Sequence record: PQ850617.1
Origin: Escherichia phage ManiMatter_Bas94
Strand: one strand, 5' to 3'
DNA length: 64,000 nt
Position numbers and translations under genes: made by a program. Numbering within the stretch: the first letter of the stretch is position 1; each line of letters opens with the position of its first letter. Below the pieces are notes generated by a model. It ran no database searches, was not told the DNA's origin, and worked only from the letters and a program-made list of their open reading frames with translations. Shown piece after piece: positions 1,034-62,180 of the stretch.

Positions 1034-1042
1034 TAATGTATA
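1034..1042 (+). promoter_or_regulatory. TAATGTATA motif (candidate phage-sigma late promoter)
   Basis: Exact TAATGTATA lies 34 nt upstream of the ATG at 1076 and directly after a terminator. TAAGACCTA lies 14 nt upstream, the same arrangement as at 17917. Confidence 0.6.
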
Positions 1043-1075
1043 TTCTTTGTCTACATATAACAAGGAGGACAACCT

Positions 1076-1828
1076 ATGGCAATGCCAGATGTTCAATACC
1101 CCATCAATACCTATGGGTGGCTAAAGAAGGCCGTGGCCCTCTGGGCAGATAGGGACGATGATGAATTTGTTAATCAAATTCCAAACTTTATTAACTTTGC
1201 AGAGAAAGAGATTTATCGTAACTTACGTATCCCTCCTCTGGAAAAAGAAGTGTATTTAGATATTAAAGATGGAGTAGCTTACATTCCTCCTGATTACTTA
1301 GAAGCTCAATGGATGATGAGAGCCAAAGATGGTACAATCTTCCAAGTAACATCTCCTGAAGAGATTAGCTATCGTAGACAGCACGGAACAATTAATCCAT
1401 CTCATTGGAATAACCAACCTGTTAACTTTGCTCGTTTCGGTAGTCGTTTCATTTTCTACCCTAGCATCGAAGCAGATACTCCGTACTACCCTGATGATGG
1501 AAGCCCTTTGATTCCAGCAGAAAACTCAGTGATTCTTAGTTATTATGCAGACCCACCGGAGTTCCATGAAGATACAGACACTAGTGCTATTCTTACTATC
1601 GCACCAGAGCTTCTTCTGTATTTCACCCTACGTCATGCTTGTCTGTTTGTTCAAGATGATAACGGTGTTCAGAAATGGTCAGCATTAGGAAAAGCTATCC
1701 TTGATGAAATGGTAGAACAGAATAAGAAACAAGAGTACTCAGGTTCACCTATCGCAATTCCGAATAACATGACCCGACTTCAGAGCAGCTTGCCTGATAT
1801 TTATGGTATTCGTACTTCTCGTGTATAA
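1076..1828 (+). CDS. Virion structural protein (head-tail adaptor / tail tubular A-like candidate)
   Basis: 250-aa ORF with SD aaggagg. Its position is directly after the capsid gene and before the fibre genes. No diagnostic motif. Confidence 0.35.
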   Translation: MAMPDVQYPINTYGWLKKAVALWADRDDDEFVNQIPNFINFAEKEIYRNLRIPPLEKEVYLDIKDGVAYIPPDYLEAQWMMRAKDGTIFQVTSPEEISYRRQHGTINPSHWNNQPVNFARFGSRFIFYPSIEADTPYYPDDGSPLIPAENSVILSYYADPPEFHEDTDTSAILTIAPELLLYFTLRHACLFVQDDNGVQKWSALGKAILDEMVEQNKKQEYSGSPIAIPNNMTRLQSSLPDIYGIRTSRV

Positions 1829-1837
1829 GGAGATAAT

Positions 1838-4486
1838 ATGATCGTTTATAATAACCAAGCACCTGATGCAGTGAATAACGTTGGGCAGTTTGGTGCTACT
1901 GAAGGCTCTATCGGAGCTTACAAGCAAGCGGCAGAATATGCAGCTGATTCTAAGTATTGGTCACTGTTGGCAGAGGCTAAGTTTGGTACAGTTGATGACT
2001 TGATTGCTCAGGTTGAGATTCTATACAAACAAGGTGTTCTATTAAGAGAAGATATTGAAGACTTAAAACAAGACTTCATTGCACAAGATGCTCGTTTGAT
2101 GAACCTCATTGCTCAAACTAACGCAGCTGTAGCTGATGCAAATAATGCAGTTGCTCTGATTAATCAGAAACTTGTAGAAGTTCAGAATCAACTCGACGTT
2201 CTGTTGGGAATGTCTGTTGACGTAACTACACTTCCTCCGGGAACTCCGGCTACTGGCTCTTTTAATCCGAACACTGGTGTAATCTCTCTGGGTATCCCAG
2301 AAGGTGATCCCGGAAAGGATGGTTCTGTTACTGACCTATCTGCTGCTCCTACCGGTACACCGGAGCTGGGGGACATCGGTTTCTATGTTGACAAAGATGA
2401 TAACATTGTTCACAAAACAACTCTCGAAGATATTGCAAACCTGATCCCATCTGTTCGTTCTGTTTCAGTTAACGATGGCCCTGCGCTTGACGGAGAAGTT
2501 GCTCTAACGCTTAACAAAGAGACGGTAGGTTTAGGGAATGTTCTGAACGTGGCTCAGTACAGCCGCCAAGAGATTAATGATAAGTTTGACAAAACAACTA
2601 AAACCTACCAATCGAAAGCCGAAGCTGATGCGGATGCTCAATACCGACAGGTAGGAGAAAAGGTTTTGGTGTGGGACTCAACGAAGTATGAATTCTATAC
2701 TGTTGCAGCGAATAAAACCCTTACTCCGGTTAAAACAGAAGGTCGTATCCTAACTGTTAACTCCCGTTCTCCTGATTCAACTGGTAACATCGATATCGTA
2801 ATCCCAACAGGAAACCCATCTTTGTATTTAGGGGAGATGGTAATGTTCCCTTATGACCCAGCTAAAGCTGTCTCCTATCCGGGCATTCTTCCTGCGGACG
2901 GTCGTTTGGTGTCAAAAGAATCTGCTTTGGATTTAGGCCCATCCCTTATCAGTGGACAACTCCCTGTTGTTTCTGAAACAGAGTGGCAAGCTGGTGCTAA
3001 GCAATATTTCTCTTGGGGTAAATTAGCCGATGGCATCACTGATGCAGATTCTACTAACTATATCAATATCCGTCTTCCTGATTGGACAGGCGGTGAGGCT
3101 ATTCGATCCCCTGATTCTGTAAAAGATAGTGCATATAAAGGTAATGTTCAAAGTCAGGTCCCTTATGTAGTCACTGTAAATAACCAAGCTCCTGATGAGA
3201 TTACAGGTAACGTCAATATCTCCAGATCTATCTTAGGTGCTGCTGCTGCTGGTGCAAACTCTGATATAACATCTCTCGCAGGGCTTACAACAGCGCTTTC
3301 TGTCACTCAGGGTGGAACAGGTGCAAAGAATTCCAATGATGCTAAGGTAAATTTAGATTTAGACAGAATAGAGCAAGGTTCTGGAGAGACTAAGATCCTA
3401 TCTCCAAATAAAGAAACCTACATGTTTGTTGATAATGACGGGTGGGGTTGTTACCGTACCACGGCTGGGTTGGTCGGTACTGTAGCTTTGTCAGTTGAGA
3501 GAGGGGGCACTGGAGCAACAGATGTTGCTAGTGCAAGAGATAATCTAGGACTTAAATCTCTTTCTACATTAGATACTGTTCCAGTAACAAAAGGTGGGAC
3601 AGGTGCTATCACTGCTGCGGAGGCTAGGTCTAATTTAGGTCTTGGTTCTGTTGCTACTCTTAGTAACGTACCAATCGCTAGTGGTGGTACAGGTGCTAGT
3701 GATGCTGCCGGTGCAAGGTTTAATTTGGGGTTGGGAAATGTTTCTACTCTGGACAACGTACCAGTTGCTAGTGGTGGTACAGGTGCTAGTGATGCTGCCG
3801 GTGCCCGAAGCAACCTCGGAGCGCTGAGTAACACTCCAGCAAACACAGGTGCAGGTAATACTGGTGCGCGAGTCCAACATGCCACCGGAAGAGGTCTGTT
3901 TACTTTAGACATGTTTAACTGCTACTGGTATATGCAGCCAGAGGATACTAACTTCTGGGTTGCCCACGGTGTGTCATATGCAGGGCCTAATGGCGAAGCC
4001 TCAGAGTATGGTCGTATATCTTACGCAATAAAGATTGCAGATGGAACAACAAAATATGTCCATTGTCTTACAAACAAAAACACCATCATTGATACAGGCG
4101 GATTTATCAAAGCGGCATCTCCGGTAGTTAACATTTATGCCAACGGTCGGTATGAAACGAACGATGAGTCTGAGGGGGTTAGTGTCATCCGGCAGGGTAT
4201 TGGTGAATATCTGATTACCGGTTGCCTCGGTCTTAACTCTGATGCAAGATGGGGTGGGGTGGATGGGGGGTTTGAAATCCCAACAGATCGCAACAAGCAA
4301 CCTAGGATTTGGCTGGACTATGAGGTTAAAGAAGATGGTTCTATTTTAGTTAAAACCTATCACAGAACTCACCCAACCTCTCCAGTTTTTGCTAGAAACG
4401 AGATAGAAGGTTTTTCTGATGGGGACCCTATTGATATTCCAAGTGATGCTTTTATCTCAGTTCGTGTAGAGATGCCAGCTGAGTAA
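1838..4486 (+). CDS. Tail fibre protein (coiled-coil N-terminus, GGTGA..A..AR.NLGL repeats, globular C-terminus)
   Basis: Five tandem units of the phage tail-fibre repeat type (V.ASGGTGASDAAGAR.NLGL). The N-terminus is a heptad-rich segment. Confidence 0.75.
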   Translation: MIVYNNQAPDAVNNVGQFGATEGSIGAYKQAAEYAADSKYWSLLAEAKFGTVDDLIAQVEILYKQGVLLREDIEDLKQDFIAQDARLMNLIAQTNAAVADANNAVALINQKLVEVQNQLDVLLGMSVDVTTLPPGTPATGSFNPNTGVISLGIPEGDPGKDGSVTDLSAAPTGTPELGDIGFYVDKDDNIVHKTTLEDIANLIPSVRSVSVNDGPALDGEVALTLNKETVGLGNVLNVAQYSRQEINDKFDKTTKTYQSKAEADADAQYRQVGEKVLVWDSTKYEFYTVAANKTLTPVKTEGRILTVNSRSPDSTGNIDIVIPTGNPSLYLGEMVMFPYDPAKAVSYPGILPADGRLVSKESALDLGPSLISGQLPVVSETEWQAGAKQYFSWGKLADGITDADSTNYINIRLPDWTGGEAIRSPDSVKDSAYKGNVQSQVPYVVTVNNQAPDEITGNVNISRSILGAAAAGANSDITSLAGLTTALSVTQGGTGAKNSNDAKVNLDLDRIEQGSGETKILSPNKETYMFVDNDGWGCYRTTAGLVGTVALSVERGGTGATDVASARDNLGLKSLSTLDTVPVTKGGTGAITAAEARSNLGLGSVATLSNVPIASGGTGASDAAGARFNLGLGNVSTLDNVPVASGGTGASDAAGARSNLGALSNTPANTGAGNTGARVQHATGRGLFTLDMFNCYWYMQPEDTNFWVAHGVSYAGPNGEASEYGRISYAIKIADGTTKYVHCLTNKNTIIDTGGFIKAASPVVNIYANGRYETNDESEGVSVIRQGIGEYLITGCLGLNSDARWGGVDGGFEIPTDRNKQPRIWLDYEVKEDGSILVKTYHRTHPTSPVFARNEIEGFSDGDPIDIPSDAFISVRVEMPAE
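3295..3830 (+). repeat. Tandem roughly 90-bp (30-aa) tail-fibre repeats, the last two nearly identical at DNA level
   Basis: ccaatcgctagtggtggtacaggtgctagtgatgctgccggtgca (3671-3715) compares with ccagttgctagtggtggtacaggtgctagtgatgctgccggtgcc (3761-3805). Confidence 0.85.
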
Positions 4487-4495
4487 ATAAAACAT

Positions 4496-4516
4496 GCTCC
4501 CTTCGGGGAGCTTTAT
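4496..4516 (+). terminator. UUCG-tetraloop hairpin, weak or leaky terminator
   Basis: gctccc-ttcg-gggagc followed only by tttat. Confidence 0.4.
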
Positions 4517-4528
4517 GGAGGATTATAA

Positions 4529-6673
4529 ATGTCTAGAGAATTAATGCCCAAATCTGGGATAATGATGCCTCATGTGGTAGTTACTAGAGATGCCGCAGTT
4601 GTGGGTGTGTCTACAGTTGATGGCGTGGCAGGTGCTGTTAATTTAACAGATAAATATCTACAAAAGTCTGATGCTGAAGCAACATATCAAACGAAAGCAG
4701 AAGGGGCTACTAAGCAATATGTAACCGATGCTATTAACCCTATTATGACAAATGCTCTGTTTAAAGATGACCCTTTTGTCAATAATGATACACCTATCCG
4801 CTCTGGTGGTGGTAATGGTGTTGAATCAGTGGATATGATTAAAGTTACCCCCGAGAACTCTATCAAACTAGGGAGTTATGCTTCTTCTGTTCAGGGGGTT
4901 GAGATTCACTCTGCTGGTCGTGTTCAGGTTGTTGATCAGAATGATGGTGGGGTAGAAACTAAATACCCTATCTATTCTAAGCGTTTCCGTCCTGAGATTG
5001 AAGATTTACCTTTTGCTGCAATCGGTTCTTATGTTAAGGATTCTCAAGGTCGTACTGTTGGTGTAACCCGTACTGGTATTAACTCTGATATCAAACAACT
5101 CACACAGAAGGTGACTTTCACTCAACCAGTTACTGTTCCTGATGCGGTTGGTGACTATGATGCAGTTACTTTGAGACAGCTTCGTAACAGTGGTGGCTCT
5201 GGCGGTCCTACCATGAGTGGTATCTCTAACTTTGGTATTGGTGATTTCCACTTACGTGATAGTCGAGCTTTCATCCCAGCTTTTGAAGTTCCCTCAGATG
5301 GTCAGCTTTTAAATCGTGCTGATTATCCTGACCTGTGGGCTTATGCTCAACTATTAACCCCTATTAGTGATTCTCTTTGGGTAGGAGATATTACCCAAAG
5401 AGGTAGATACTCCACAGGCGATGGCACCACCACTTTCCGTGTCCCTGACCGAAATGGTATTCAGCTTAACTCCCTTGCAGCTCTTTATGGACGAGGTGAT
5501 GGGGGTGCTTCCGCAGCTAATGGTATGGTTTTTGACTCTGCCGCTCCTAACATCTACGGTGACATTGGTGGTGTTGTAGCCTATGGTCAGACTGGTGCTA
5601 TTATGCGAGGTCAGGAAGAAACTGCACTAGCTCCACAACCAGTTACAGGAAACGGTGTATTAAGGGTAAGCTTGGATGCTTCCAAATCAAGTCCGATATA
5701 CGGTCGCAGTAACTCAGAAATCATGGGTCGTAACTTTGTAGGTGTTTGGACTATTCGTGCTCATGGTGGTTTTACTGCTGCTAACACATCTTGGTCAGTT
5801 ATTAATAGTGATGCAAACCGTCCTGCTGGTGGAACTCGAGCAACTAGTGGTTCTGTTGTTGCTGAATATAAAATAGGTTCAGAAGTAGAAGCCTCTACTA
5901 CGCTCCAAACTGATGCTTATATCGACGGAGCTTATTATGGGATTATCAATGTTTATAATAAAACCAAAGGAGTTACCAAGCAATTAGCTTTTGATGATTC
6001 TGGAACCCTGAACTCTGATAGGTATGCTGCTCGGTTTGGGACAATGATGGCTTGGAGCCAAACAGGAAGTCGCAGAGGGACGTTTTCTACAGACAACCAA
6101 GGGATCGGTGCTAACTACTCTTTTAACTCTATACTGAGTGCTTCCCAAGCATCCCAAGGTGGATACAAAACTACTACCCATGTAGGGATGATTCACAACG
6201 ATGCTGGAACTTTTGCTGATTCTTGTTGGCACGTAGCTGGGGATGAAGACAACAAATATGGTTGTCGTTTAACTCTTCGACCAAACAGAAATGAGCTTTT
6301 CTATTACACTTGGCAGCCTGGCGCATCAGGAGTTTACACTCTTGCTATGAATCCTGTGTCAGATGAAAGGTTGAAACACAACATTCAAGATCTCTCGCCT
6401 GATGAAGCAATTCGTGCGATTAAAGGTTTGGATTTCAAATCGTTTGTATATAACAACGACGAACAAGGAAGAACTCGTCGTGGTGTTATCGCACAGCAAG
6501 CAGAAAAGGTAGAACCTCTTTATGTTAAGACTCGTAGGTTCCATGACAACGACGGCGTAGAGCAAGAACAGAAAGAGCTGGACTCAGCTCCTATGCTCCT
6601 CGATACTATGCAAGTTGTTCAAGACCTGTTGAAACGTATTGAAGTTCTAGAAGCGAAGTTAGCAGAGAAGTGA
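4529..6673 (+). CDS. Tail fibre/spike with tail-collar domain and C-terminal S74 intramolecular-chaperone domain
   Basis: Collar-type motif LLNRADYPDLWAYAQ...GDGTTTFRVPDRNG. C-terminal SDERLKHNIQDL...RRGVIAQQAEKVEPLYV matches the self-cleaving chaperone of endosialidase / L-shaped fibre type. Confidence 0.8.
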   Translation: MSRELMPKSGIMMPHVVVTRDAAVVGVSTVDGVAGAVNLTDKYLQKSDAEATYQTKAEGATKQYVTDAINPIMTNALFKDDPFVNNDTPIRSGGGNGVESVDMIKVTPENSIKLGSYASSVQGVEIHSAGRVQVVDQNDGGVETKYPIYSKRFRPEIEDLPFAAIGSYVKDSQGRTVGVTRTGINSDIKQLTQKVTFTQPVTVPDAVGDYDAVTLRQLRNSGGSGGPTMSGISNFGIGDFHLRDSRAFIPAFEVPSDGQLLNRADYPDLWAYAQLLTPISDSLWVGDITQRGRYSTGDGTTTFRVPDRNGIQLNSLAALYGRGDGGASAANGMVFDSAAPNIYGDIGGVVAYGQTGAIMRGQEETALAPQPVTGNGVLRVSLDASKSSPIYGRSNSEIMGRNFVGVWTIRAHGGFTAANTSWSVINSDANRPAGGTRATSGSVVAEYKIGSEVEASTTLQTDAYIDGAYYGIINVYNKTKGVTKQLAFDDSGTLNSDRYAARFGTMMAWSQTGSRRGTFSTDNQGIGANYSFNSILSASQASQGGYKTTTHVGMIHNDAGTFADSCWHVAGDEDNKYGCRLTLRPNRNELFYYTWQPGASGVYTLAMNPVSDERLKHNIQDLSPDEAIRAIKGLDFKSFVYNNDEQGRTRRGVIAQQAEKVEPLYVKTRRFHDNDGVEQEQKELDSAPMLLDTMQVVQDLLKRIEVLEAKLAEK

Positions 6674-6677: not shown

Positions 6678-6696
6678 AGCCCCTTCGGGGGCTTTA
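6678..6696 (+). terminator. UUCG-tetraloop hairpin terminator
   Basis: agcccc-ttcg-ggggct followed by ttt. Confidence 0.55.
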
Positions 6697-6765
6697 GTAG
6701 TAAGTACCCTTAGTAAGTAATGAAACTAATATATCCCAAGAGGTTAATATATAGGAGACACTCAA

Positions 6766-14193: not shown

Positions 14194-15246
14194 ATGTCTT
14201 TATTTGGAAAATCAGCTTCTAGCAAAACCACAGTGGCTCCTTCCTCTCAGGTTGATGCCCTGCTGAAGCAGATTGTTGCTAATGCTCAGAATATGCAGAA
14301 CAACGATCAGGGATTCATTTCCCAACAGCTGGCTGGGTTTAATGGCAACCAACAAGGTGCTCTGAACAACTTAGCAGCTTCTACTACTCAAAAGCAATTG
14401 GCTGATATGTACACACCTCGTACACAGCAAGGGCTAGACCAACTGAATTCTCTTGCCCAGCAGTATCAGAATATTGTTAATGGTGGTGGCCTGACTGCTG
14501 ACGGTGTTAATAACTTTAGTAGAGGTTTAAACAACTCAGCTCTTGCTCAAGCTACCAGTAAAGCAGCTTCCAATGTATCTCTTGGAAATGGTTCTGACTC
14601 AGGCTCTCTTCGTAGAGCTGCTGCTCAGGGTGCTGCTCTTAATGGTGCTAATACAAACCTCTCTCGTACCATCAATGGTAAGAACATGGGAATTAGTGCT
14701 CTTCAACAAGATCAAAACTTCCAGAGGGGTTTGCTTGGTGCTCAGTCTGGTTTAGCTGGACAGAACCTCAATCTCGGTGCACAAGGTGTTCAGGCAACTC
14801 AGCAAGCTATCCAGAATCAACTCATGGCTGGTAATTTACAACAGCAACAAGCTCAAGCTCAAGCAGATATCAATTGGCAGAATGCTATTGGTTCTCGGCA
14901 GTATGGGTGGAATCAGCTTAACAATCAGCTTAATGTACTAAACAGTGTAAGCCCGATGGCTGGATATACGATTAAGAATGCTGCTCCGGGTATTAGTACA
15001 GGACAACAGCTCCTAGGTGCTGGTATTACTGGTTTAGGTATTGCAGGTCGTTTGGGTGCTTTCTCTCCTGACCAACAGACTCAGAATGCTTGGAGTTCCT
15101 ATAACAATTCAGGCGGGCAATCTGGAATGGCTGGTCCTATGATTGGGGGTTCTAATCTTTCTCAACAGAAAGGTCAGTCTAACTGGTTATCCACAATGGG
15201 TAATAATATCTTAGGTGGTGTCTTAGGGGCATTCGGAGCAAACTAA
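14194..15246 (+). CDS. Q/N/G-rich internal virion (ejection) protein, paralog A
   Basis: Low-complexity Q/N-rich sequence. Shares MSLFGKS.., GFNGNQQGALNNLA, W..GWNQLNNQL and a Gly-rich hydrophobic tail with the next ORF. Confidence 0.5.
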   Translation: MSLFGKSASSKTTVAPSSQVDALLKQIVANAQNMQNNDQGFISQQLAGFNGNQQGALNNLAASTTQKQLADMYTPRTQQGLDQLNSLAQQYQNIVNGGGLTADGVNNFSRGLNNSALAQATSKAASNVSLGNGSDSGSLRRAAAQGAALNGANTNLSRTINGKNMGISALQQDQNFQRGLLGAQSGLAGQNLNLGAQGVQATQQAIQNQLMAGNLQQQQAQAQADINWQNAIGSRQYGWNQLNNQLNVLNSVSPMAGYTIKNAAPGISTGQQLLGAGITGLGIAGRLGAFSPDQQTQNAWSSYNNSGGQSGMAGPMIGGSNLSQQKGQSNWLSTMGNNILGGVLGAFGAN

Positions 15247-16240: not shown

Positions 16241-17896
16241 ATGCAACAGACAACTTACGCTCAGGTCAGAAGTCGTGACCCGAGAAATACTTTCTATGGT
16301 GTTAATCCGGGAGCGGCTTCGGCCTCTCCTTATATGGCTAGACCTATTCAGACAGCAGATGTTTCTATGTACCGACGTCCTTCTGTACCTCCATCTCTCG
16401 CAGGTCTTATCTCTCAGGCAGAAGAAGATCAGAATGCTATGGTGAATCCGGGATTTCAGCAACGTCTTATGGAACAACAGAATCGAGGAACCCCAACAAG
16501 TCTTCAGGGTATTGATATTGGAGCACCAGCCCCTGTAGCAGCTAATCCTGATTTATCCACTGATCAGGGTTTACAAGATGCTGGACTTATGCCTAGCGAC
16601 CCTCTTCCGGTAACGCCTCCTACTAAACCGCTAGAAGATGGCCCTATGGAGTTTACTCCTTCTCAAGTGGAACAGGCACAAGGTGTTGTTACTACTCTTG
16701 CTCAAGGTCAGGACACTGGAGACGGAATGGCTGGGGCTACTCGTATTAAAGATCAGGAACGTGTTAATAATGATATCATGCAAATTGCTAAAGCTAAAGA
16801 CCCTTCCGAAGCTTGGAATAAACTACAGAAAGAACCTTTCTATCAGAATTCCAGTTTCTATACAGGTTTGATGGGTGTAGGTCTTTCTATCATGTCAGGT
16901 AAATCTCCTATCGAAGCATTCCAAATTGGTCAGGGAATGGCTAATCAAGATGAGACTAAGAAGCAACTAGAAGCTAACCGTGATGCTCTGATTGAACAAG
17001 GTTTCTCTCAAGACTCAATTGCAGCTGCTATTGCTAACGGAGATCCATCTCTTCTGAAGATGAAAACTATAGACCCTGCTCAAAAAGAAGCATGGTATGA
17101 GGAGCGTGAAAGACGTCAGAATGCGGAGTGGGATAGACGTCAACAGATTCAAGAGAAATCTATGCGTGAGCGTGCTGAGGAAACTCGTCGTGCTGCTGAA
17201 GAGAGGACTAACATGAACCTTGAACGTCAGAAAAAGTTGATTGACTATCGTGATAAGGTTAAGGCTGAACGTGCCGAACAAGCTGCTCAGAGTTTTAACT
17301 TCTCCCCTAAAGAGACTCGTAACGCTCAGAATACAGCTGAAGGTAAAGTTGCCACTCAGTGGGCAGAGAAAGGTGGCCTGTTTAACCAATCCAATAAAGA
17401 CTTGGACTTGGCTGATAAAGCTATTAAGGACAAGGATTACCAGACGGCCCGTTCTGCTTACATGCAGGCTATCATGAACTCCGCAAGGGCTGAAATCGGT
17501 TCTACTCGTTCTCTTACTGAAGAAGACTTGGGACATTTTGCAGAAGATCCATCAATCTTCATCCGTGTAGGTAACAAGTTCGCTCTGAAGTCGGGATGGC
17601 GTCCTACTGATTCTGCTCTTGCTTATGCTCGTAAACAAGCGAACGTCGGTTACACCTCTGCTATGAAGGGTGTTGCTGATGCTAAGAAAGCTGTTATCGA
17701 AGCGTACATCGGCTCTAAGATGGATAAGAAGAGAGCTACTGCATTGGTTAACCGTGCAATCCCTTCTGGCGGTTTCTATGATCCTCTCGGTGTTTTCTCT
17801 GAGGAAGCAGAAGAGTCAGTTGGTGGTGCAGCAACCAATCCTAAACTGAATGGTGCTTTATCTGGTTCTTCAGATACTAGCTGGTTCACTGAGTAA
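16241..17896 (+). CDS. Internal virion protein, unknown function
   Basis: 551-aa ORF in the internal-protein block with a charged coiled-coil centre (ERERRQNAEWDRRQQIQEK..). Confidence 0.45.
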   Translation: MQQTTYAQVRSRDPRNTFYGVNPGAASASPYMARPIQTADVSMYRRPSVPPSLAGLISQAEEDQNAMVNPGFQQRLMEQQNRGTPTSLQGIDIGAPAPVAANPDLSTDQGLQDAGLMPSDPLPVTPPTKPLEDGPMEFTPSQVEQAQGVVTTLAQGQDTGDGMAGATRIKDQERVNNDIMQIAKAKDPSEAWNKLQKEPFYQNSSFYTGLMGVGLSIMSGKSPIEAFQIGQGMANQDETKKQLEANRDALIEQGFSQDSIAAAIANGDPSLLKMKTIDPAQKEAWYEERERRQNAEWDRRQQIQEKSMRERAEETRRAAEERTNMNLERQKKLIDYRDKVKAERAEQAAQSFNFSPKETRNAQNTAEGKVATQWAEKGGLFNQSNKDLDLADKAIKDKDYQTARSAYMQAIMNSARAEIGSTRSLTEEDLGHFAEDPSIFIRVGNKFALKSGWRPTDSALAYARKQANVGYTSAMKGVADAKKAVIEAYIGSKMDKKRATALVNRAIPSGGFYDPLGVFSEEAEESVGGAATNPKLNGALSGSSDTSWFTE

Positions 17897-17916
17897 GACC
17901 TAAGTCCTGCCTTCCA

Positions 17917-17925
17917 TAATGTATA
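17917..17925 (+). promoter_or_regulatory. TAATGTATA motif (candidate phage-sigma late promoter)
   Basis: Exact motif 38 nt upstream of ATG 17963. TAAGACCTA lies 14 nt upstream, as at 1034. Confidence 0.55.
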
Positions 17926-17962
17926 TAGGAGGTAGGACATTTTATTTATAAAAGGAGACGTT

Positions 17963-24111: not shown

Positions 24112-25282
<1,171 letters not shown>

Positions 25283-25574: not shown

Positions 25575-26321
25575 TTAGAATGGGCTGTCGTTGTCGTCTT
25601 CGTAGGTAGAAGCAGGCTCTTTATCAATCGTAGGGATTGAAGGAGTAGCTTCTTTCTGTTCTGTTTCAGAAGCACGAGTAATTTCACGACCAGCCAGAGG
25701 TATGTTCTTAGCGTCATTAGCTTGAGTAAGCAGGTTGCGCTGGAACGGGAACATCAGTTGATAAGATGCTACGTTCTCATCGGTTTCAGCATACGGTTCG
25801 AAGAATACCAGAGGACTACGAGCTTCACCAACTGCTGCACGATATTTGGTTGGGATTGGAGAAATGGTTTTGATGGAGTTTTTAACTTCACCAGCTTTGT
25901 TAGTGTAGGAGTTAACCAGAATGTTAACAGGCTGACCTAACAGCACATCCTTAAACCAAGACAGATCACCTTTCAGTGCTTGAATGCTTGGGTCAATCAT
26001 CTTGCAAAGATCAAGGATACCAGAGTTCTTAGCTCGTGGGTTTACATCATAACTCTTGAACTGGCAAGCAGGACGTGGTTCTAATGCCTTACCATCGGAA
26101 TCTTTACCCGTAGCATCAACACCAATCAGCTCGAAAGCCAAATCCATACGGAAAGCTGGATTCTTAGGAGTTACTGCTTTGGTCTTCGGGTCAATCCAAG
26201 GGTCACGATTGTGAACACCCAAACCTACTACACGAACAATACGTGCTTCGTATTCACCATCAGGGATTACATCGTAGTTGGATTTACGAGAAGAAGTTGC
26301 GATAGTTGGAATCATAGACAT
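25575..26321 (-). CDS. ssDNA-binding protein (T7 gp2.5-like)
   Basis: Acidic C-terminal tail STYEDDNDSPF ends in an aromatic residue, as in SSB/gp2.5 tails. High-expression codon bias, own promoter and own terminator. Confidence 0.6.
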   Translation of the reverse strand: MSMIPTIATSSRKSNYDVIPDGEYEARIVRVVGLGVHNRDPWIDPKTKAVTPKNPAFRMDLAFELIGVDATGKDSDGKALEPRPACQFKSYDVNPRAKNSGILDLCKMIDPSIQALKGDLSWFKDVLLGQPVNILVNSYTNKAGEVKNSIKTISPIPTKYRAAVGEARSPLVFFEPYAETDENVASYQLMFPFQRNLLTQANDAKNIPLAGREITRASETEQKEATPSIPTIDKEPASTYEDDNDSPF

Positions 26322-26380
26322 ATTTTAATTTCCTTATTTAATTTGAAAGATTGTTGCTCTCTTTGAGCGGTTATGTATAA

Positions 26381-26389
26381 TATACATTA
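26381..26389 (-). promoter_or_regulatory. TAATGTATA motif (minus strand) upstream of the SSB gene
   Basis: Plus-strand tatacatta is an exact minus-strand motif about 60 nt upstream of ATG 26321. It forms a near-palindrome with ttatgtata (26371-26379). Confidence 0.55.
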
Positions 26390-26452
26390 CGCTTATACCG
26401 ATAAGAGTACTATATAATATAAGTGTCTTTGGTAGTAGATATAACACACTAG

Positions 26453-26461
26453 TAATGTATA
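26453..26461 (+). promoter_or_regulatory. Orphan plus-strand TAATGTATA motif with GGTAGTAGATAT upstream element
   Basis: Exact motif pointing rightward into ORF-free sequence inside the leftward gene train. GGTAGTAGATAT lies 10 nt upstream, the same arrangement as at 36386 on the minus strand. Confidence 0.45.
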
Positions 26462-26557
26462 TATTGTATAGCTGATAAAGTTATTGCAGGCTTGTATATT
26501 GGGCAATTCATAGAATCCCTTGCAAGTACCGAAGGGCAGGAGCCACCTGCGAGATAA

Positions 26558-26623
26558 AAATAGAGAATTAAGGAATCCTTGATTTAGGTTGTAGGGACTC
26601 CTAGGGACTTTGATTCTCTATTT
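26558..26623. terminator. Long inverted repeat (11-bp arms), probable minus-strand terminator
   Basis: Arms aaatagagaat...attctctattt. On the minus strand the hairpin is followed by TTTTTATCTC. Confidence 0.55.
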
Positions 26624-26742
26624 AAAAGAATAAATAATTACTATATCTAATACTAAACAGACTGAAACAAAGATAAGAAACTTCTTATAAATACTCATTA
26701 CTTATCATCTAAATAGTTAACTAATCTCTGATATAAAGAAGT

Positions 26743-26931
26743 TTAAATCAAGCATCCATCACAAACATAGTCTCCACTAAGAGACTCTTGTAACAAACGA
26801 TTTTGTTCCTCTGAATATAGAGAATTTACTAATTCTTTTAACTCTGAAAGAGTGATGAAATCAATAGTATTTCCATTATCTAAAATAGAAGAGTTAAGTA
26901 AATATTCATTGTCTTTAATTTTATTAATCAT
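26743..26931 (-). CDS. Hypothetical protein (62 aa, AT-rich)
   Basis: ORF-track ORF. ATGA coupling to the upstream small ORF. Confidence 0.45.
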   Translation of the reverse strand: MINKIKDNEYLLNSSILDNGNTIDFITLSELKELVNSLYSEEQNRLLQESLSGDYVCDGCLI

Positions 26932-29421: not shown

Positions 29422-30772
29422 AGATAAACGTTTTAGCGTTGTCACGAGTAGGAAGACCAGCAAGTTTCTGGTTGTGGGAGTGGATATCACCTTCAAGAAG
29501 GATATCACGATACATAATAGCAGAAGCTAAACCACGTTCTGCCAGAGCTTTCTTAGCTGGATTATTCTCTTCGATTGCTTCAGCAAGCATATCCCTACAT
29601 TCTTTAATGAGGTAGTGAGCGAGCATACGAAGTTCAAGTCCAGAACCATCATACCCTAAGAATACTTCTTTACCAGCGGGTATGTAATATTTGTAAGCAC
29701 CTACAGGCTTATCTTTCTTCCCCGGCTTACCTTTCTCGTAAATTACGTTAGTACCTTTTCGTATATAACAACCATCAGGAACAACGTTAGTAATAACGAA
29801 AGGACGAGAGTGATCACTGTCTGAATTATAGTCAGACTCAAACAAACTGCGACACTCATGACCAAACAAACCACGGGAGGGAATATTAACCACGATACGA
29901 TGTTTGAATCGAAAAGTTGGCGTAGCGCAGCTGTTAGCTTCTGCCGAAAGTTTACCATCTTCGCGTTCCTTTGCTATGAGTCCACTGATAAGACCTAGCC
30001 TGTGAGCCGCTACAACGCGCCTCTTAAGCAAACTTCCAACACTCCCTAGCTCGCCCCCTAACCCTTCTTCAAGAGTCTCCTCGAGGTTTGTAGGAGCTGT
30101 AGGCCACTTGTTTGAGGTAGCTAGTGCTATCTTAATCTCATCAAACGTGATAGGTCTACGTCGGTTAGGGTTTAAACCTAAACCAAACACATAAGCCTTC
30201 ATATAGTTCTTAGTCTTAAACCTAAAATGCTTCTCTAAGAACCTCCTAATATCTGCGTCAACCATCTCGGCTGTCTGCTTCTGTTTAGCATTACCTCGAA
30301 TCCAAGCTGAATACCACGCTTGGTATGTTCCATACTTTCGTATATCTTTCTTGATTTCAAAAGTATTCCAAGGTTTCTTTGATACGTTAAACTCTGGAGG
30401 AAGAAAACCCTCATCCATAAGGGCTTCTTTAACTCGTGCATCTTTCGATGGGTCAAAGTCCACGTATTCAACACAGGTGAATGCTCCACCAATGTCTTCT
30501 CTCTTAAGGCCAACTCTATCACAATAGGCTTGAGGCCACTTCTGTAAAGCTCCAGACTTCTTAAATGGCTTCATATAAGTAGAGCCATCTAATCTCATCT
30601 TAGGTAAGAGAGGGATCAGTTCTTTGTCGATATTAACAATAATCTCTTTAAGGAGGTGAACATACCACCGAGCATTTCTTCGGTTGAAACTCACTCCGTG
30701 CTTCGCTTGCTTAGAGATTATATCAGCGACAGTCATCTCTGTCAAAAATGGGAGAGCGTCCGGGTTGCTCAC
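29422..30772 (-). CDS. DNA polymerase (family A, T7 gp5-like), exon 1; polymerase domain only
   Basis: Motif A LGYDGSGLELRMLAHY. Ends ...GLPTRDNAKTFI, the first half of motif B, followed by an intron-borne stop. No exonuclease motifs at the N-terminus. Confidence 0.85.
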
Positions 30773-31891: not shown

Positions 31892-31900
31892 TATACATTA
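31892..31900 (-). promoter_or_regulatory. TAATGTATA motif (minus strand)
   Basis: Plus-strand tatacatta lies 37 nt upstream of ATG 31855. Confidence 0.55.
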
Positions 31901-31909
31901 TGAATGATG

Positions 31910-32077
31910 TTAAAACTCTGCTAAGTATTTAATATCAGAGGCATATACCTCATCAAAGGAAATAATTTCTCCATTGTAAAGAAGTTCTATCTTCAATATA
32001 CCAGAGCATTTGGTGTCTTTAGAATCAACCCTGATAGAGAGCTTATCAACTATCTAAGCTTTAATCTCTTCTATCAT
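31910..32077 (-). pseudogene. 56-codon ORF interrupted by an in-frame TAG at codon 8
   Basis: MIEEIKA-TAG(32056-32054)-IVDKLSIRVDSKDTKCSGILKIELLYNGEIISFDEVYASDIKYLAEF. I see no alternative canonical start with an SD after the stop. Confidence 0.4.
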
Positions 32078-36385: not shown

Positions 36386-36394
36386 TATACATTT
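36386..36394 (-). promoter_or_regulatory. AAATGTATA variant motif (minus strand) with GGTAGTAGATAT upstream element
   Basis: Minus strand reads ggtagtagatat-N10-AAATGTATA, 40 nt upstream of ATG 36346. Confidence 0.5.
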
Positions 36395-36418
36395 GAGAGT
36401 TACCATATCTACTACCAA

Positions 36419-53597: not shown

Positions 53598-53677
53598 TGA
53601 GGATGACAGGATTTGAACCTGCATACTCCAATTACTTCTTTAACGACCGCTTAGAAGGCGGGGAAGATACATCCTCA
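53598..53677 (-). tRNA. tRNA-like element (possible degenerate tRNA-Arg UCU); non-canonical by eye
   Basis: The minus strand has a 7-8 bp acceptor stem GAGGATG/CATCCTC, a perfect T arm GCAGG-TTCAAAT-CCTGT, and a hairpin CCGC-CTTCTAA-GCGG with an anticodon-like loop (UCU). I could not fold a D arm: only 7 nt lie between the acceptor stem and that hairpin, and 23 nt follow it. Confidence 0.4.
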
Positions 53678-57018: not shown

Positions 57019-57040
57019 TTTTGCTACCCCTTAGATAGAA

Positions 57041-57225: not shown

Positions 57226-57314
57226 AAGGCGGCTATGTGGAAGCTTCAAATGGGGAGAGGGCACGACGCGGCAGAAAGAGCGTCATAGTACTAAAAGAGG
57301 GGGCTGCATTCCTA

Positions 57315-57758: not shown

Positions 57759-57827
57759 TATCTTATTCCTTTCAGTGATAAGTTATATCGGGCAAGCCCA
57801 TCAAGGCGATAGGCTTGAACAAATAAC

Positions 57828-58255: not shown

Positions 58256-58479
58256 TTTCTCAATCCTAACTTTCTTAAGACACGGCCTAACGTTGTTTCT
58301 TGGGTGATAATATACCTGACCGCTTCACGTTCCAACGTTTCAATCTTCATTGGCGACGGATACCATTCACCGGTAAGCATACACCTATACTCAACGCCAT
58401 ACTTTTTAGATAGGCGGTAATGTTGACCGTTGACAAGGTTCCTATAAATCGTGGTATGCGTCGTTAACATAATCGTCAC
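58252..58479 (-). CDS. Hypothetical protein (75 aa)
   Basis: ORF-track ORF with ATGA-type overlap downstream. Confidence 0.4.
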   Translation of the reverse strand: MTIMLTTHTTIYRNLVNGQHYRLSKKYGVEYRCMLTGEWYPSPMKIETLEREAVRYIITQETTLGRVLRKLGLRK

Positions 58480-58530
58480 CTTTGATTAGATTCTTTGATT
58501 AGTACACTGAATCAATGCACTGATAAAAGA

Positions 58531-58562
58531 AAAGGCGCTACCCGTTAAAGATAGCGCCTCAT
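58531..58562 (-). terminator. Rho-independent terminator after the first early gene
   Basis: Minus strand reads aggcgcta-tctttaacgg-tagcgcct followed by tttcttttatc. Confidence 0.7.
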
Positions 58563-58582
58563 GTTTATTTAGATTGTCTTAC

Positions 58583-59482
58583 TTATGCCGCCTGACGTGC
58601 CGCCATAATTTCAGCCGCTTTGCGCAATACTTCTTCCTCTTCTGCTTTCGCCGCTTGTTCGGTACGGGTAGCAACCGTTGAAGAGATACGACCGCGCAGA
58701 CTTTCTAACTTCTCTTGCATAGCTGCGATGGTCTTTTCCATTTCATCAGCGTATGAGTCCAGTGATTCTAGTTCCTTGCTCGATGCGTTCATCAGATAAT
58801 CATCAGAGATCGCTACCGTTGAGGCCGTCACTTTCTTGATGAGTGAGTCGAATGACTTCTTAACCTTGCCGACTTCTTCACTTAAGGCAATAGTGTTATC
58901 ACTGGTAGCGCCGTTGCGCTCATCGGCCAACAATTTTGCTTCAATACGGATTGCATTCAAGCGTTCAACTAAAGCGTAAATATCCTGATTAAAATCTTCC
59001 TTGTTTTTCGCCGGTATTTGAAGGTGTGCCGCCACGTTGTCATTGCAACCTTTGTAGAAGTTAGGATTATCCACTTCAATTGCACGACCTAAAGCAAAAT
59101 TCTCGAAAGCATTCGACCAGCGAGCGCGGTTTTGTTCCATTTTGGCCTTAATTTGCGCTTCTTTCGCATCTTCTTTCGCTTTCGCTTCACCTTCCAGATT
59201 AATCCATTTTTTACGACCGTTCGCCGCCTCGGTATTAAACTTGATTGGAGTAAGGAAAGTAATTGCAGTGGCAATAACATCCATATCGCGGAAACGTTCA
59301 GTTAACAGAAAATCGACCGCCGACTGCAATACATCTAATTTCTTGCCGTTGCTGCGGAAGTGCTGCAAATGACCTAACAGAAAGTTAGAAACATCTTGCT
59401 TAATCGCCGCGTTATTGCTACGGATGTTGTTTGCCAGTGCATTGAAACCGGATTCTTTTACCAGATTAAAAACTTTAGCCAT
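58583..59482 (-). CDS. First early protein (299 aa), helical, unknown function
   Basis: ATG 59482 is preferred (aaggtg, 7 nt). It is the first ORF downstream of the promoter array. GC- and CpG-richer than the rest of the window, judged by eye. Confidence 0.5.
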   Translation of the reverse strand: MAKVFNLVKESGFNALANNIRSNNAAIKQDVSNFLLGHLQHFRSNGKKLDVLQSAVDFLLTERFRDMDVIATAITFLTPIKFNTEAANGRKKWINLEGEAKAKEDAKEAQIKAKMEQNRARWSNAFENFALGRAIEVDNPNFYKGCNDNVAAHLQIPAKNKEDFNQDIYALVERLNAIRIEAKLLADERNGATSDNTIALSEEVGKVKKSFDSLIKKVTASTVAISDDYLMNASSKELESLDSYADEMEKTIAAMQEKLESLRGRISSTVATRTEQAAKAEEEEVLRKAAEIMAARQAA

Positions 59483-60301
59483 GATATTCACCTTTCAATT
59501 ATAAGGGCACTATTGCCCCGCTCGCTATGAGCTTTCAAGCCATTATTGACTTAACTATAAACGCTCACTATAAACGCTTATAGGTAAGCGGAGCGGTCTT
59601 ATCAGGAGTTAACCTTGCCGCTCCCTTATCCGTGATGTTTCATCTGGTATCTTTAATTAGTCGCTATAAATAAAGCCGACTTGATAGCGATGATCAATCA
59701 TCACAATAAGGCCAGTGTGTCCGACTCAATTTAATTACATTACTGTAACCGTCGGCAATATCGTTTACTCTGCTTTCGCTCCCGCCTATCCTTTTGTATC
59801 AGCTCTTTATCGCTAGTCATCGCCCACTACGGGATACTATTGCGAAAAAGTCACTAACCGCCTAATATTCCGGCGTTTTATATCTTTCGGCAAGTTTACT
59901 ACACAACACGACTATGTACTTTCATCCTAAGACGAATATCAAGCCGCTCACGTCGTAAACGTTCACACTAAAACCTTATTGTTAAATAGCAATTTGCCAC
60001 TTTTTAACCGTTCGCCGCCGCCCTCAATTGGGCGTTAATTCGTCGGGATTGTCTACCCTGATCAGTTTCTTTCATTGTAGCGCCTTTTTAGCTAGGCCGC
60101 CGCTACCCATTAACCGTGGGCGATTAGTTTTAGCCTTGCGTGCACTCAATGATTCCGCTTACCAGTGGTGACGTTTCCAGTTAAGGGATTGTAAAGCTGT
60201 TTACCCTGATAATTTAGGGAGCTTTACGCCGTTTTATCTGGTATGTTTTCCGATGGTCATTATCATCCAACATATGCAACCGATATAGGGGAACGTTTAA
60301 A

Positions 60302-60314
60302 TTATTAAAGAGCG
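60302..60314 (-). promoter_or_regulatory. boxA-like element 1 (CGCTCTTTAATAA)
   Basis: Minus-strand sequence about 90 nt downstream of the predicted P1 start. Compare rrn boxA TGCTCTTTAACAA. Confidence 0.55.
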
Positions 60315-60408
60315 GTAAATCTGTCAGTGTGCTTTCTCACACTACGCAACTGTTAGCCGTTGTGTCGCTTTTTCACTGAAGCGGTGATTTGCTTAGTGAC
60401 TTGTGCTT

Positions 60409-60437
60409 ATTATGAATCATTTTGCTTCCGCCGTCAA
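60409..60437 (-). promoter_or_regulatory. Sigma70 promoter P1 (TTGACG-17-CATAAT)
   Basis: Read on the minus strand, with A-tracts upstream (gatgaaaaaagattaaaaaagtga). Confidence 0.7.
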
Positions 60438-60541
60438 TCACTTTTTTAATCTTTTTTCATCGTTCCCGCTGTTGGGAAGATATATCAATCAGCTATATTT
60501 GATTGAAGATTAAGCGATCAGGCTTGAACTTATGATTCATA

Positions 60542-60554
60542 TTTTTAAAGAGCG
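60542..60554 (-). promoter_or_regulatory. boxA-like element 2 (CGCTCTTTAAAAA)
   Basis: Lies 13-25 nt downstream of the predicted P2 start. Confidence 0.55.
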
Positions 60555-60573
60555 GTTTTTCTGACTTGTGATC

Positions 60574-60602
60574 AGTATAAACTTACTTTCTCACGTTGTC
60601 AA
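60574..60602 (-). promoter_or_regulatory. Sigma70 promoter P2 (TTGACA-17-TATACT)
   Basis: Read on the minus strand, with an A-tract upstream (gataaaaaagagat). Confidence 0.75.
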
Positions 60603-60676
60603 TCTCTTTTTTATCGTCTTCTTTGATTCTCTTCCCTTATCTCGCGTGAATCTATGCGAAAGGGCAAGACGATAAA

Positions 60677-60689
60677 TTTTTAAAGAGCG
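60677..60689 (-). promoter_or_regulatory. boxA-like element 3 (CGCTCTTTAAAAATTTATCG)
   Basis: Lies 28-40 nt downstream of P3. The similarity extends to the rrn leader TGCTCTTTAACAATTTATCA (from memory). Confidence 0.6.
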
Positions 60690-60723
60690 GGATTTTTTAA
60701 GTCATCGCTGACCTTGTACACTC

Positions 60724-60752
60724 ATTATAGGTTAGGCTTTTTCCGGTGTCAA
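60724..60752 (-). promoter_or_regulatory. Sigma70 promoter P3 (TTGACA-17-TATAAT, full consensus)
   Basis: Minus strand reads ttgaca ccggaaaaagcctaacc tataat. Confidence 0.85.
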
Positions 60753-60771
60753 TATTCTTTTTCAGAATATT
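60751..60771 (-). promoter_or_regulatory. boxB-like hairpin A (AAUAUUCU-GAAAA-AGAAUAUU)
   Basis: 8-bp stem with a GAAAA pentaloop closed by U-A, 17 nt downstream of boxA 4. It overlaps the UP/-35 edge of P3. Confidence 0.45.
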
Positions 60772-60788
60772 TTCACTTTCTAGCCTGA

Positions 60789-60801
60789 TTTTTAAAGAGC
60801 G
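60789..60801 (-). promoter_or_regulatory. boxA-like element 4 (CGCTCTTTAAAAA)
   Basis: Downstream of P4 and followed by hairpin A. Confidence 0.55.
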
Positions 60802-60944
60802 TTTAAAGCTGTATGGCTCCCATAACACCACTTGATGATCAGTTAACCTACGATCATTCAGGACTATAGTACCCGCTTAGTTGCGTCTGACTTGCTTCAC
60901 TCACTAGGGAGTTACTTGAGCGGTCATCTTGTCTTTCTAAGCTC

Positions 60945-60972
60945 ATTATAGGTTAGGCTTTTCAGTTGTCAA
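60945..60972 (-). promoter_or_regulatory. Sigma70 promoter P4 (TTGACA-16-TATAAT)
   Basis: Part of a roughly 80-bp direct repeat with the P3 unit (60721-60802 versus 60942-61022). Confidence 0.8.
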
Positions 60973-60990
60973 ATACTTTTTCAAGTATTT
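60971..60990 (-). promoter_or_regulatory. boxB-like hairpin B (AAAUACUU-GAAA-AAGUAUUU)
   Basis: 8-bp stem with a GNRA loop, 18 nt downstream of boxA 5. The stem differs from hairpin A at several positions but stays complementary. Confidence 0.45.
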
Positions 60991-61008
60991 TTTCACTTTC
61001 TAGCCTAC

Positions 61009-61021
61009 TTTTTAAAGAGCG
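61009..61021 (-). promoter_or_regulatory. boxA-like element 5 (CGCTCTTTAAAAA)
   Basis: Lies 41-53 nt downstream of the predicted P5 start. Confidence 0.55.
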
Positions 61022-61068
61022 GGGCAATTTCTTGCCTTGTATGTTTTACATCGTACCCGATGGAAATG

Positions 61069-61096
61069 AGTATACGCGAGCCTTTAGAAAGTGCAA
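61069..61096 (-). promoter_or_regulatory. Sigma70 promoter P5 (TTGCAC-16-TATACT)
   Basis: Read on the minus strand, with AT-rich sequence upstream. Confidence 0.55.
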
Positions 61097-61254
61097 TAGG
61101 GGAAAGCAAATTATTTTAAACTTTTTCACTGTAGGGAAGATAGAAGAGCGGGCTGACGTGGTACACCATAGGAAACGGCTTGTAAAGCGATAATAGGCGG
61201 CCTAAAACGCACCACAATGAGCTAAAAGGGGATAAGGTATATAATCACCTTAGA

Positions 61255-61286
61255 AAAGAAAAAAGCGCCTTTATTGGCGCTTATAG
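61255..61286 (-). terminator. Rho-independent terminator
   Basis: Minus strand reads agcgcc-aataaa-ggcgct followed by tttttctttt. Confidence 0.75.
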
Positions 61287-61303
61287 GGATGATTTAAAGT
61301 TTT

Positions 61304-61555
61304 TCACCATTTAGGCAAATCTGCATCAAGTAGGCCAGCAAGTGACAATTCACCGTCAACATATATCGATCTGAAATCGTCCCGATTGATATCAATGCGT
61401 ACCATTTGCAGCCATTTTTTGGCCTCGTTAAAGCTCATTGAGCAAAAAGAAACCGTGGGCAATATTACGTCACCATTTTGCAAGCCGAACGCGATAAAAG
61501 TATCGCACACGCAGCAAGAAAGACCGTTCGACAATTTAATCTCTTTGATACTCAT
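61304..61555 (-). CDS. Hypothetical protein (83 aa), paralog of 56270..56515
   Basis: Full-length similarity to 56270..56515, roughly 60 percent aa identity by eye. Confidence 0.5.
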   Translation of the reverse strand: MSIKEIKLSNGLSCCVCDTFIAFGLQNGDVILPTVSFCSMSFNEAKKWLQMVRIDINRDDFRSIYVDGELSLAGLLDADLPKW

Positions 61556-61582
61556 GTTTTTACACTCCCAAAGATAGGTTAT

Positions 61583-61729
61583 TTATTTGCTGAATTTAGC
61601 GCCATAAAACTTACTAATCTTGTTTTTCGGGCTTAACTTGCTATCAGTGAGCGCTTCAATCACTTCACAAACGATCAGGGCAAGTAAAGGAAAAACTACA
61701 GCCATAAACATCATTACCAGAATAATCAT
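61583..61729 (-). CDS. Small membrane protein (48 aa)
   Basis: Hand translation gives MIILVMMFMAVVFPLLALIVCEVIEALTDSKLSPKNKISKFYGAKFSK. Confidence 0.4.
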   Translation of the reverse strand: MIILVMMFMAVVFPLLALIVCEVIEALTDSKLSPKNKISKFYGAKFSK

Positions 61730-61861
61730 TTCTATCACTCCAATCACTCAATCCGTAGGCTTCAATTTACTACTACTTAATAAGGAAAGCAATCACCACG
61801 GGCAAAATACTACCCGCAGAACAGACCACGGGGGAACGTGCCAGATAATGCGGTAATAATA

Positions 61862-61997
61862 TTCCACTTAAATAATTAGTTAACTATTAATAACATTACT
61901 CAAACATCAAACGTTAAAAGAAAAGAATAACAGAACGCTGAAAAAGAAAAGAATAAAAAGAAATATAATAAACATCAAACATAATCTTTCCACTTAA
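61862..61997. repeat. AT-rich region with nested short direct repeats
   Basis: ttccacttaa (61862, 61988), aacatcaaac (61903, 61971), aaaagaaaagaataa (61916, 61942). Confidence 0.7.
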
Positions 61998-62171
61998 TTA
62001 ATGCATATATCATTATTGCACTCATAATTATCACCATTGAAACTATTTACATTCAAACTATGGGGGATGGCGATAGTTGCTATCCGGTATTAATAGCCTC
62101 AATATAATCAAGCATTAACAATGGCTAGCCTTTCCCATACTCTTTTAAGGGGCACTAAATAAACGGGTATT

Positions 62172-62180
62172 AAATGTATA
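62172..62180 (+). promoter_or_regulatory. AAATGTATA variant motif (candidate promoter of the rightward operon)
   Basis: Same variant as at 36386. Followed by four ACGGG repeats (62163, 62192, 62208, 62220). Confidence 0.4.

Follow-up and report, generated by a model that had tools for sequence, protein, structure and literature searches.

The gp36-dependent promoters of bacteriophage phiEco32 are the closest described counterparts of the promoter-like sites considered here, which lie in a stretch of 64,000 nucleotides (nt) from Escherichia phage ManiMatter_Bas94 (sequence record PQ850617.1), referred to as the window. Six promoters dependent on the phage sigma factor gp36 have been mapped in phiEco32, upstream of genes 6, 13, 26, 40, 58 and 68 (PMC4331800; PMC8948821, text and Table S2; PMC4281155), and the element published for them, tAATGTAtA, is found 6-8 nt upstream of the transcript start (PMC4331800, PMC8948821, PMC4281155). 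From 2012 until 2022 such promoters were described as a single element with no -35 box, in the 2022 paper on the ground that gp36 seemingly has no region 4 (PMC8948821). A structure of the open complex on the promoter of gene 68, P68, obtained in 2025 by electron cryomicroscopy (cryo-EM), places the C-terminal domain of gp36, which is sigma4-like, in the major groove of the -35 region (PMC12276001; PDB 9m7y). In this complex R187 bonds N7 of -37G and Y186 touches the methyl carried by the T that is opposite -34A, and transcription is abolished when these contact residues, or the bases at -37 and -34, are mutated (PMC12276001). The main text of that paper gives contacts for a single promoter, and its consensus is still AATGTA; the text contains neither a -35 consensus nor a comparison between promoters, and TAAGACCTA, one of the two upstream sequences discussed below, is not treated in it.

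The whole 64-kb window is that of a phiEco32-like Kuravirus of the Gordonclarkvirinae. Its DNA identity to phiEco32-like phages ranges from 92 to 99%, with 99% to Escherichia phages Bas93, Bas92 and LAMP and about 92% to phiEco32. It has in common with phiEco32 the element tAATGTAtA, the sigma factor, its co-activator and the promoter positions P6, P13, P26, P40, P58 and P68, and our result is an incremental refinement of the known gp36 system, not a new system. A first-pass annotation of the window had noted that two copies of the element are preceded by the 9-mer TAAGACCTA and two others by the 12-mer GGTAGTAGATAT, and had read these as two distinct partner elements, marking either middle versus late promoter classes or a second recognition element. 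We consider it probable (roughly 0.7) that these sites are bipartite promoters of host core polymerase with gp36 and that the two upstream elements are versions of one -35 box. The comparison suggests that every gp36 promoter carries such a box, with the consensus TGGTAG 17 bp upstream of tAATGTAtA. Whereas the published description of phiEco32 has a single element and no -35 (PMC8948821), the -35 pattern is present in all promoters of the window, which also contains two additional candidates, Px and P16.

The positions and spacings in the first-pass annotation were all correct on recount. Exact copies of TAATGTATA occur at 1034(+), 17917(+), 26381-26389(-), 26453(+) and 31892-31900(-), that is, five copies where 0.74 are expected, a number reached in none of 100 shuffles. 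The variant AAATGTATA occurs at 36386-36394(-) and 62172(+) and is not significant alone (2 versus 0.86 expected). TAAGACCTA begins at 1011 and 17894, each time exactly 14 nt before the -10 box, and GGTAGTAGATAT is found at 26431(+) and 36405-36416(-), each time exactly 10 nt before it (2 versus 0.02 expected). The identification of the -10 box in that annotation as the element of the phiEco32 sigma factor agrees with the gp36 promoter element in PMC8948821 and PMC4331800. Orthology was assigned by comparison with phiEco32, SU7, E20-1, KBNP1711 and ECBP2. Five of the seven sites originally listed correspond to published promoters, namely 1034(+) to P13, 17917(+) to P26, 26389(-) to P40, 31900(-) to P58 and 36394(-) to P68. 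A sixth published promoter, P6, had been overlooked; its position is 63441(+). Two of the listed sites have no counterpart among the published promoters: 26453(+), which we call Px, is conserved, and the doubtful 62172 has a different sequence in phiEco32. The statement that the sites lie 34-60 nt upstream of the first gene, measured from the end of the -10 box to the start codon in the open reading frame (ORF) list, holds at five of the seven; 26453(+) has no same-strand gene downstream, and the next plus-strand ORF after 62172 is 195 nt away. Positions, spacing and orthology are thus our own observations, while gp36 dependence and starts 6-8 nt downstream are taken from the literature. The seven credible promoters are as follows.

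1011-1042, plus strand: P13 orthologue; -35 box TAAGAC at 1011-1016, -10 box TAATGTATA at 1034-1042.
17894-17950, plus strand: P26 orthologue; -35 box TAAGAC at 17894-17899, -10 box at 17917-17925.
26381-26412, minus strand: P40 orthologue, driving the sigma-gene operon; -10 box TAATGTATA at 26381-26389, -35 box TAGTAC at 26407-26412.
26430-26461, plus strand: Px, predicted seventh promoter, unpublished; -35 box TGGTAG at 26430-26435, -10 box TAATGTATA at 26453-26461.
31892-31923, minus strand: P58 orthologue; -10 box at 31892-31900, -35 box TAGCAG at 31918-31923.
36386-36417, minus strand: P68 orthologue; -10 box AAATGTATA at 36386-36394, -35 box TGGTAG at 36412-36417.
63410-63449, plus strand: P6 orthologue; -35 box TGGGAG at 63418-63423, -10 box TAATGTAGA, as published, at 63441-63449.

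In the numbering of the structure paper, in which AATGTA occupies -14 to -9, the 12-mer extends from -37 to -26 and TAAGACCTA from -38 to -30, and the hexamers listed above all fall on -38 to -33. When the seven promoters are aligned on the -10 box, each has T at -38, a purine at both -37 and -36, A at -34 and G or C at -33, which gives the common pattern T-R-R-N-A-S from -38 to -33. This pattern is found at 0.9% of window positions and at one of 34 control NAATGTANN sites. An A at -34 is present in 7/7 promoters and in 11/34 controls; a purine at -37 together with A at -34 is present in all seven and in five of the 34 controls, and the base at -34 of 62172 is C. In P68 the first G and the A of GGTAGTAGATAT, which spans 36405-36416, are G 36416 and A 36413; these fall on -37 and -34, the bases contacted by R187 and Y186 in the open complex (PDB 9m7y; PMC12276001). 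The number of matches to GGTAGT at -37 to -32 is six at P68 and Px, four at P6 and P40, three at P58 and one at P13 and P26. The consensus -35 box would therefore read TGGTAG(TA), 17 bp upstream of the -10 box, with TAGTAC, TAGCAG, TGGGAG and TAAGAC as predicted weaker forms. GGTAGTAGATAT is best read as this consensus box with a conserved 3' flank, and TAAGACCTA as its most divergent variant, likewise with a 3' flank. The suggestion of a second recognition element is in this way supported, and on P68 has a structural basis in the contacts at -37 and -34 seen in 2025. That there are two distinct partner elements is not supported, as both occupy -38 to -33 and fit T-R-R-N-A-S, and the pattern is common to P40, P58 and P6.

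The genome encodes both the cognate sigma factor and its co-activator:

24378-25022, minus strand: gp36 sigma gene, 98% identical to phiEco32 gp36, with a match to PDB 9m7y chain F, as the first-pass annotation had proposed in calling this ORF the sigma homologue.
42304-42552, minus strand: gp79 gene, 100% identical to phiEco32 gp79, with a match to 9m7y chain G; in the literature gp79 is a sigma70 inhibitor and the gp36 co-activator.

Neither the contact residues Y186 and R187 nor the helix around them, SHGTFYRRY, varies in 14 gp36 homologues with identities down to 47%. In two sigma homologues of 55-56% identity (L006 and L007), residues in contact with the -10 box are changed (H80N and R84Q), and TAATGTATA is absent from the expected promoter positions of these contigs, which suggests that their sigma factor has an altered -10 specificity; having no TAATGTATA sites, they are uninformative on the -35 question.

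The upstream sequences are also conserved in relatives, and both elements are kept across three genera of the International Committee on Taxonomy of Viruses (ICTV). GGTAGTAGATA is unchanged at P68 and Px in the three genera, while the next 10-11 nt of Px vary in nearly all lineages. In metagenomic contigs whose sigma factor is 64-72% identical only (T)GGTAGT(A/G) is retained, at times one base nearer the -10 box. In ES17-type genomes (L024 100-310; also L039-L043) a small gene has been inserted between P40 and Px, giving both promoters new upstream DNA, and GGTAGT is found at exactly -37 in both; the chance frequency of the hexamer is 2.3e-4. The upstream DNA of P58 in E20-1 and KBNP1711 cannot be aligned to that of the window, yet it has TGGAAT and TGGCAA at -38. 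At P13 of E20-1 TAAGACC is intact between a diverged upstream terminator and a diverged downstream spacer, and more distant lineages have TAATAC or TAGCAC at -38, again T-R-R-N-A-C. We therefore read TAAGAC as the most divergent form of the same -35 box, one in which -37 is still a purine and -34 still A. At P26 TAAGACCTA is unchanged across the three genera, as well as in a single contig whose sigma identity is 71%, and the coding sequence just upstream varies. Scans of IMG/VR and of metagenomes for further relatives yielded almost no extra lineages.

These observations are consistent with a mechanism in which each promoter is read in two places. The N-terminal, sigma2-like domain of gp36 would recognize tAATGTAtA at -15 to -7, a step that is published, and its C-terminal, sigma4-like domain would recognize the -35 box at -38 to -33, 17 bp from the 9-mer. 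Then gp79 would stabilise the C-terminal domain on the polymerase, again as published. The contacts at -37 and -34, which come from the literature on P68, would operate at the other promoters too; what our analysis adds to them is the conservation of the DNA and the invariance of the contact residues. The poor match of TAAGAC might make P13 and P26 weaker or more dependent on gp79, and any consequence for timing is speculation.

Several points weigh against one shared box. TAAGAC matches the GGTAGT consensus at only one of six positions. The identity between P13 and P26 (9 bases) and between P68 and Px (11-12 bases) is longer than a sigma4-type helix should read, and may reflect further selection on these extended identities. 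At P26 part of the element doubles as a stop codon, and in distant relatives the element decays to TAAAACCTA, TAAACCCAA, TAACAGTAA and ATAACACTA although the recognition helix is invariant. Finally, T-R-R-N-A-S was derived from the same seven sites on which it is tested, so its presence in 7/7 is not independent; only positions -37 and -34 were fixed in advance, by the structure. We therefore give more weight to A at -34, to the invariant contact residues and to the comparative evidence. The nine identical bases at P13 and P26 are not accounted for by the -35 box, and a separate factor may be involved there.

These long identities are what would be expected if there were two true promoter classes, TAAGACCTA being the site of a late activator or repressor, in the manner of a MotA box, and GGTAGTAGATAT the site of another factor, with the two sites setting the timing of expression. 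Both identities (9/9 bases between P13 and P26, 12/12 between P68 and Px) are retained across three genera and exceed the length of a typical -35 hexamer, TAAGAC matches the gp36 -35 consensus poorly, and among promoters TAAGACCTA is restricted to the two of the virion module. However, the promoters are not partitioned by timing in the way that middle and late classes require. The late promoter P6 has TGGGAG and not TAAGAC, and, being without TAAGACCTA, it shows that late promoters are not defined by this element; P40 and P58, which are middle promoters, are without the 12-mer, and the copy of GGTAGTAGATAT at 26453(+) drives no middle gene but a non-coding region. Moreover, P26 and P68 are transcribed in vitro with just core polymerase, gp36 and gp79 (PMC12276001), and we found no candidate DNA-binding activator. 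The TAAGACCTA and GGTAGTAGATAT boxes begin at the same position, with T, R, R, A and S in common, and the extended parts of both are lost in distant relatives. We therefore regard two separate classes as unlikely.

A second possibility is that the GGTAGTAGATAT region, through TTGGTA or TAGATA, is a sigma70 -35 box, so that P68 and Px would be dual promoters used first by sigma70 and later by gp36. The genome paper of phage SU10 marks ttggta of the P68 orthologue in this way: its supplement prints the P68 sequence and labels the start of it a sigma70 -35 box. Apart from this supplement, a search of the papers available in full text found none containing GGTAGTAGATA or TAAGACCTA. A simple scan at Px also finds TAGATA-18-TATATT, with 9/12 matches. 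This is no better than in shuffled sequence (4 found versus 3.3 expected), and a scan for sigma70-type promoters (TTGACA-like and TATAAT-like boxes 16-18 bp apart) finds none at P68. Distant relatives retain GGTAGT and not TTGGTA or TAGATA, and cryo-EM places the gp36 C-terminal domain on exactly those GGTAGTAGATAT bases (PMC12276001), which makes dual promoters quite improbable. That the upstream similarities are functionless remnants of promoter duplication or of low divergence is more improbable still: most relatives are 80-99% identical, so that short conserved stretches are expected, but those observed are islands between diverged spacers, the similarity of P68 and Px is limited to a 14-mer and the -10 box, GGTAGT is back at -37 on replaced upstream DNA in ES17, and mutation of -37/-34 abolishes transcription (PMC12276001).

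If a single -35 box is accepted, the layout can be compared with other phage systems. The middle promoters of T4 combine a MotA box at -30 with a sigma70 -10 box, together with AsiA. The likeness to T4 is that sigma region 4 is remodelled or supplanted by a co-factor from the phage and that a phage-specific upstream box replaces the host -35; the difference is that in T4 a separate DNA-binding activator reads the box, whereas in the phage of the window, as far as the evidence goes, the sigma factor itself does so. The layout is the same as that of promoters of two-domain sigma factors (group 4, or extracytoplasmic function (ECF)-like), including gp47 of phage 7-11 (GTAAtg-16-aCTA), in which sigma4 reads the -35 and sigma2 the -10 box, about 16-17 bp apart. 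The box sequences are unrelated, however, and the C-terminal domain of gp36 is a shortened sigma4 that needs gp79 for stability. The 7-11 gp47 is about 15% identical to gp36 (PMC8948821).

Three of the promoters overlap or adjoin terminators. At P13, where TAAGACCTA spans 1011-1019, the promoter begins 8 nt past a terminator hairpin (979-1002), and the adaptor gene begins 34 nt downstream, at 1076. At P26 the TAA of the -35 box is also the stop codon of the ORF at 16241-17896, and the -10 box makes up the apex of a hairpin at 17904-17938, with a stem of 15 bp and a U-rich tract after it. Three compensatory pairs are seen in this stem in relatives, and it contains several G-U pairs workable on the plus strand only; its folding energy is -19 kcal/mol (z = -3.7). 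With a G+C-containing stem and a U tract it is a predicted intrinsic terminator, one that overlaps the promoter. One internal mismatch kept it from being flagged by a simple terminator scan. Transcripts from P26 would begin inside the 3' arm and so escape this terminator. At P6 the -35 box is within the 3' arm of an intrinsic terminator hairpin (63410-63425), and TGGGAG is one sequence serving two signals, -35 box and predicted terminator arm. Three further copies of TAAGACCTA, not listed in the first-pass annotation, bring the total to five (0.63 expected). These copies, at 29989(+), 30859(+) and 62676-62684(-), were rejected as promoter elements: there is no -10 box downstream of them, and their positions are either antisense within coding sequence or in the repeats of the left end. 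Their conservation is inconsistent, and KBNP1711 has just the two promoter-linked copies.

Px is divergent from P40, and its GGTAGTAGATAT spans 26431-26442. Its predicted -35 and -10 boxes are the best in the genome, and in all the relatives compared the promoter is conserved. Its orientation, away from the genes on either side, may account for its absence from the results of published searches. There is no ORF of at least 40 codons downstream, and from the predicted start, at about 26468, onward the DNA is conserved and non-coding.

26468-26630, plus strand: conserved non-coding region, candidate RNA of about 160 nt, with a 5' hairpin at the predicted start, a variable middle and an invariant long hairpin at the 3' end.

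These roughly 160 nt are present in 98 phage records with 89-100% identity. The 5' hairpin has three unrelated stem sequences across lineages and the middle part at least two forms. The 3' part, from GAAGGGCAGGAG to GAUUCUCUAUU, hardly varies, and this holds even for contigs whose sigma factor is 71% identical, in which Px has TAATGAATA and GGTGGTAGT. The plus strand is predicted to fold better than the minus strand (-45.8 versus -35.3 kcal/mol) and uses G-U pairs. Formal covariation in the candidate RNA was found only in the 5' hairpin, the other helices being invariant and therefore uninformative. No Rfam family matches 26300-26800 at E <= 5, and none at the gathering score, and a search for transfer RNA (tRNA) downstream of Px gave no match. 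Elsewhere in the window Rfam reports a tRNA at 53598-53676(-), with 33.4 bits against a gathering score of 29; ARAGORN finds no tRNA anywhere in the window. On the minus strand the long 3' hairpin has a U5 tail and may therefore serve as a terminator of the P58 operon as well. Two distant lineages retain Px with just AT-rich DNA after it, so that transcription into the spacer may matter in itself. We see an even chance that Px makes a structured non-coding RNA of about 160 nt with an almost invariant 3' domain. Possible roles of such an RNA are regulatory or protein-binding, or that of a transcript priming or activating an origin beside the AT-rich DNA at 26620-26740. The GC skew near 26.5 kb, considered as a sign of a replication origin, merely tracks transcription direction, and a placement of the origin on this ground was rejected.

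The -10 box also varies among relatives. TAATGAATA, in which A replaces T at -10, is found repeatedly as the -10 box where distant relatives have the orthologous promoters (Px of L011 and L013, P13 of L019) and is also found near the left end of phiEco32 (L001 44-52); it may be a tolerated -10 variant. In the metagenomic contig L039 the -10 box of Px is TAATATATA, in which the G at -11 is lost.

A scan of the window for the bipartite pattern (T-R-R-N-A-S, 16-18 nt, NAATGNA) recovered all seven promoters and one new site, at 6695-6726.

6695-6726, plus strand: P16, candidate eighth promoter; TAGTAG at 6695-6700, a 17-nt spacer and TAATGAAAC at 6718-6726.
62172-62180, plus strand: doubtful site; AAATGTATA, with no -35 match (GGGGCA).

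P16 lies just past a terminator, at a distance of 39 nt from the start codon (6766) of the holin gene, with the holin and endolysin genes downstream. Its boxes are kept in phiEco32, SU7, E20-1, KBNP1711 and ECBP2 (TAGTAG or TAGGAG, with GTAATGAAACTA), the spacer between them being different. None of the six published promoters corresponds to it; it keeps the AATG read in the structure but not the published 9-mer, which would account for its having been overlooked. A promoter at 62172 is improbable. This site was considered as the P6 orthologue and rejected, P6 being at 63441; 62172 corresponds to phiEco32 44-52, where the box is TAATGAATA. It is 45 nt from the position matching the left end of the phiEco32 genome, phiEco32 position 1 aligning to window position 62127. 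The counterpart of the phiEco32 left end, 62127-62700, contains several GGGCAC-like repeats on both strands. At 14909-14939(+), inside the gene of a DNA-ejection protein, TGGAAT at -38 is followed by TAATGTACT, and both are conserved in relatives; as the site is within coding sequence, its conservation proves nothing, and it is possibly an internal promoter.

The first-pass annotation had regarded the upstream elements as new. The contacts on P68 were already described (PMC12276001); what is new is a family-wide -35 consensus, an unexplained variant of it at late promoters and two unlisted candidate promoters. The graded -35 matches are a possible basis of promoter strength and timing in these phages. 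The bipartite pattern would allow better annotation of about 100 sequenced relatives, several of which are therapy candidates, and both unlisted candidates, the one in front of the lysis genes and the one reading into a conserved non-coding region, have already been indicated by it.

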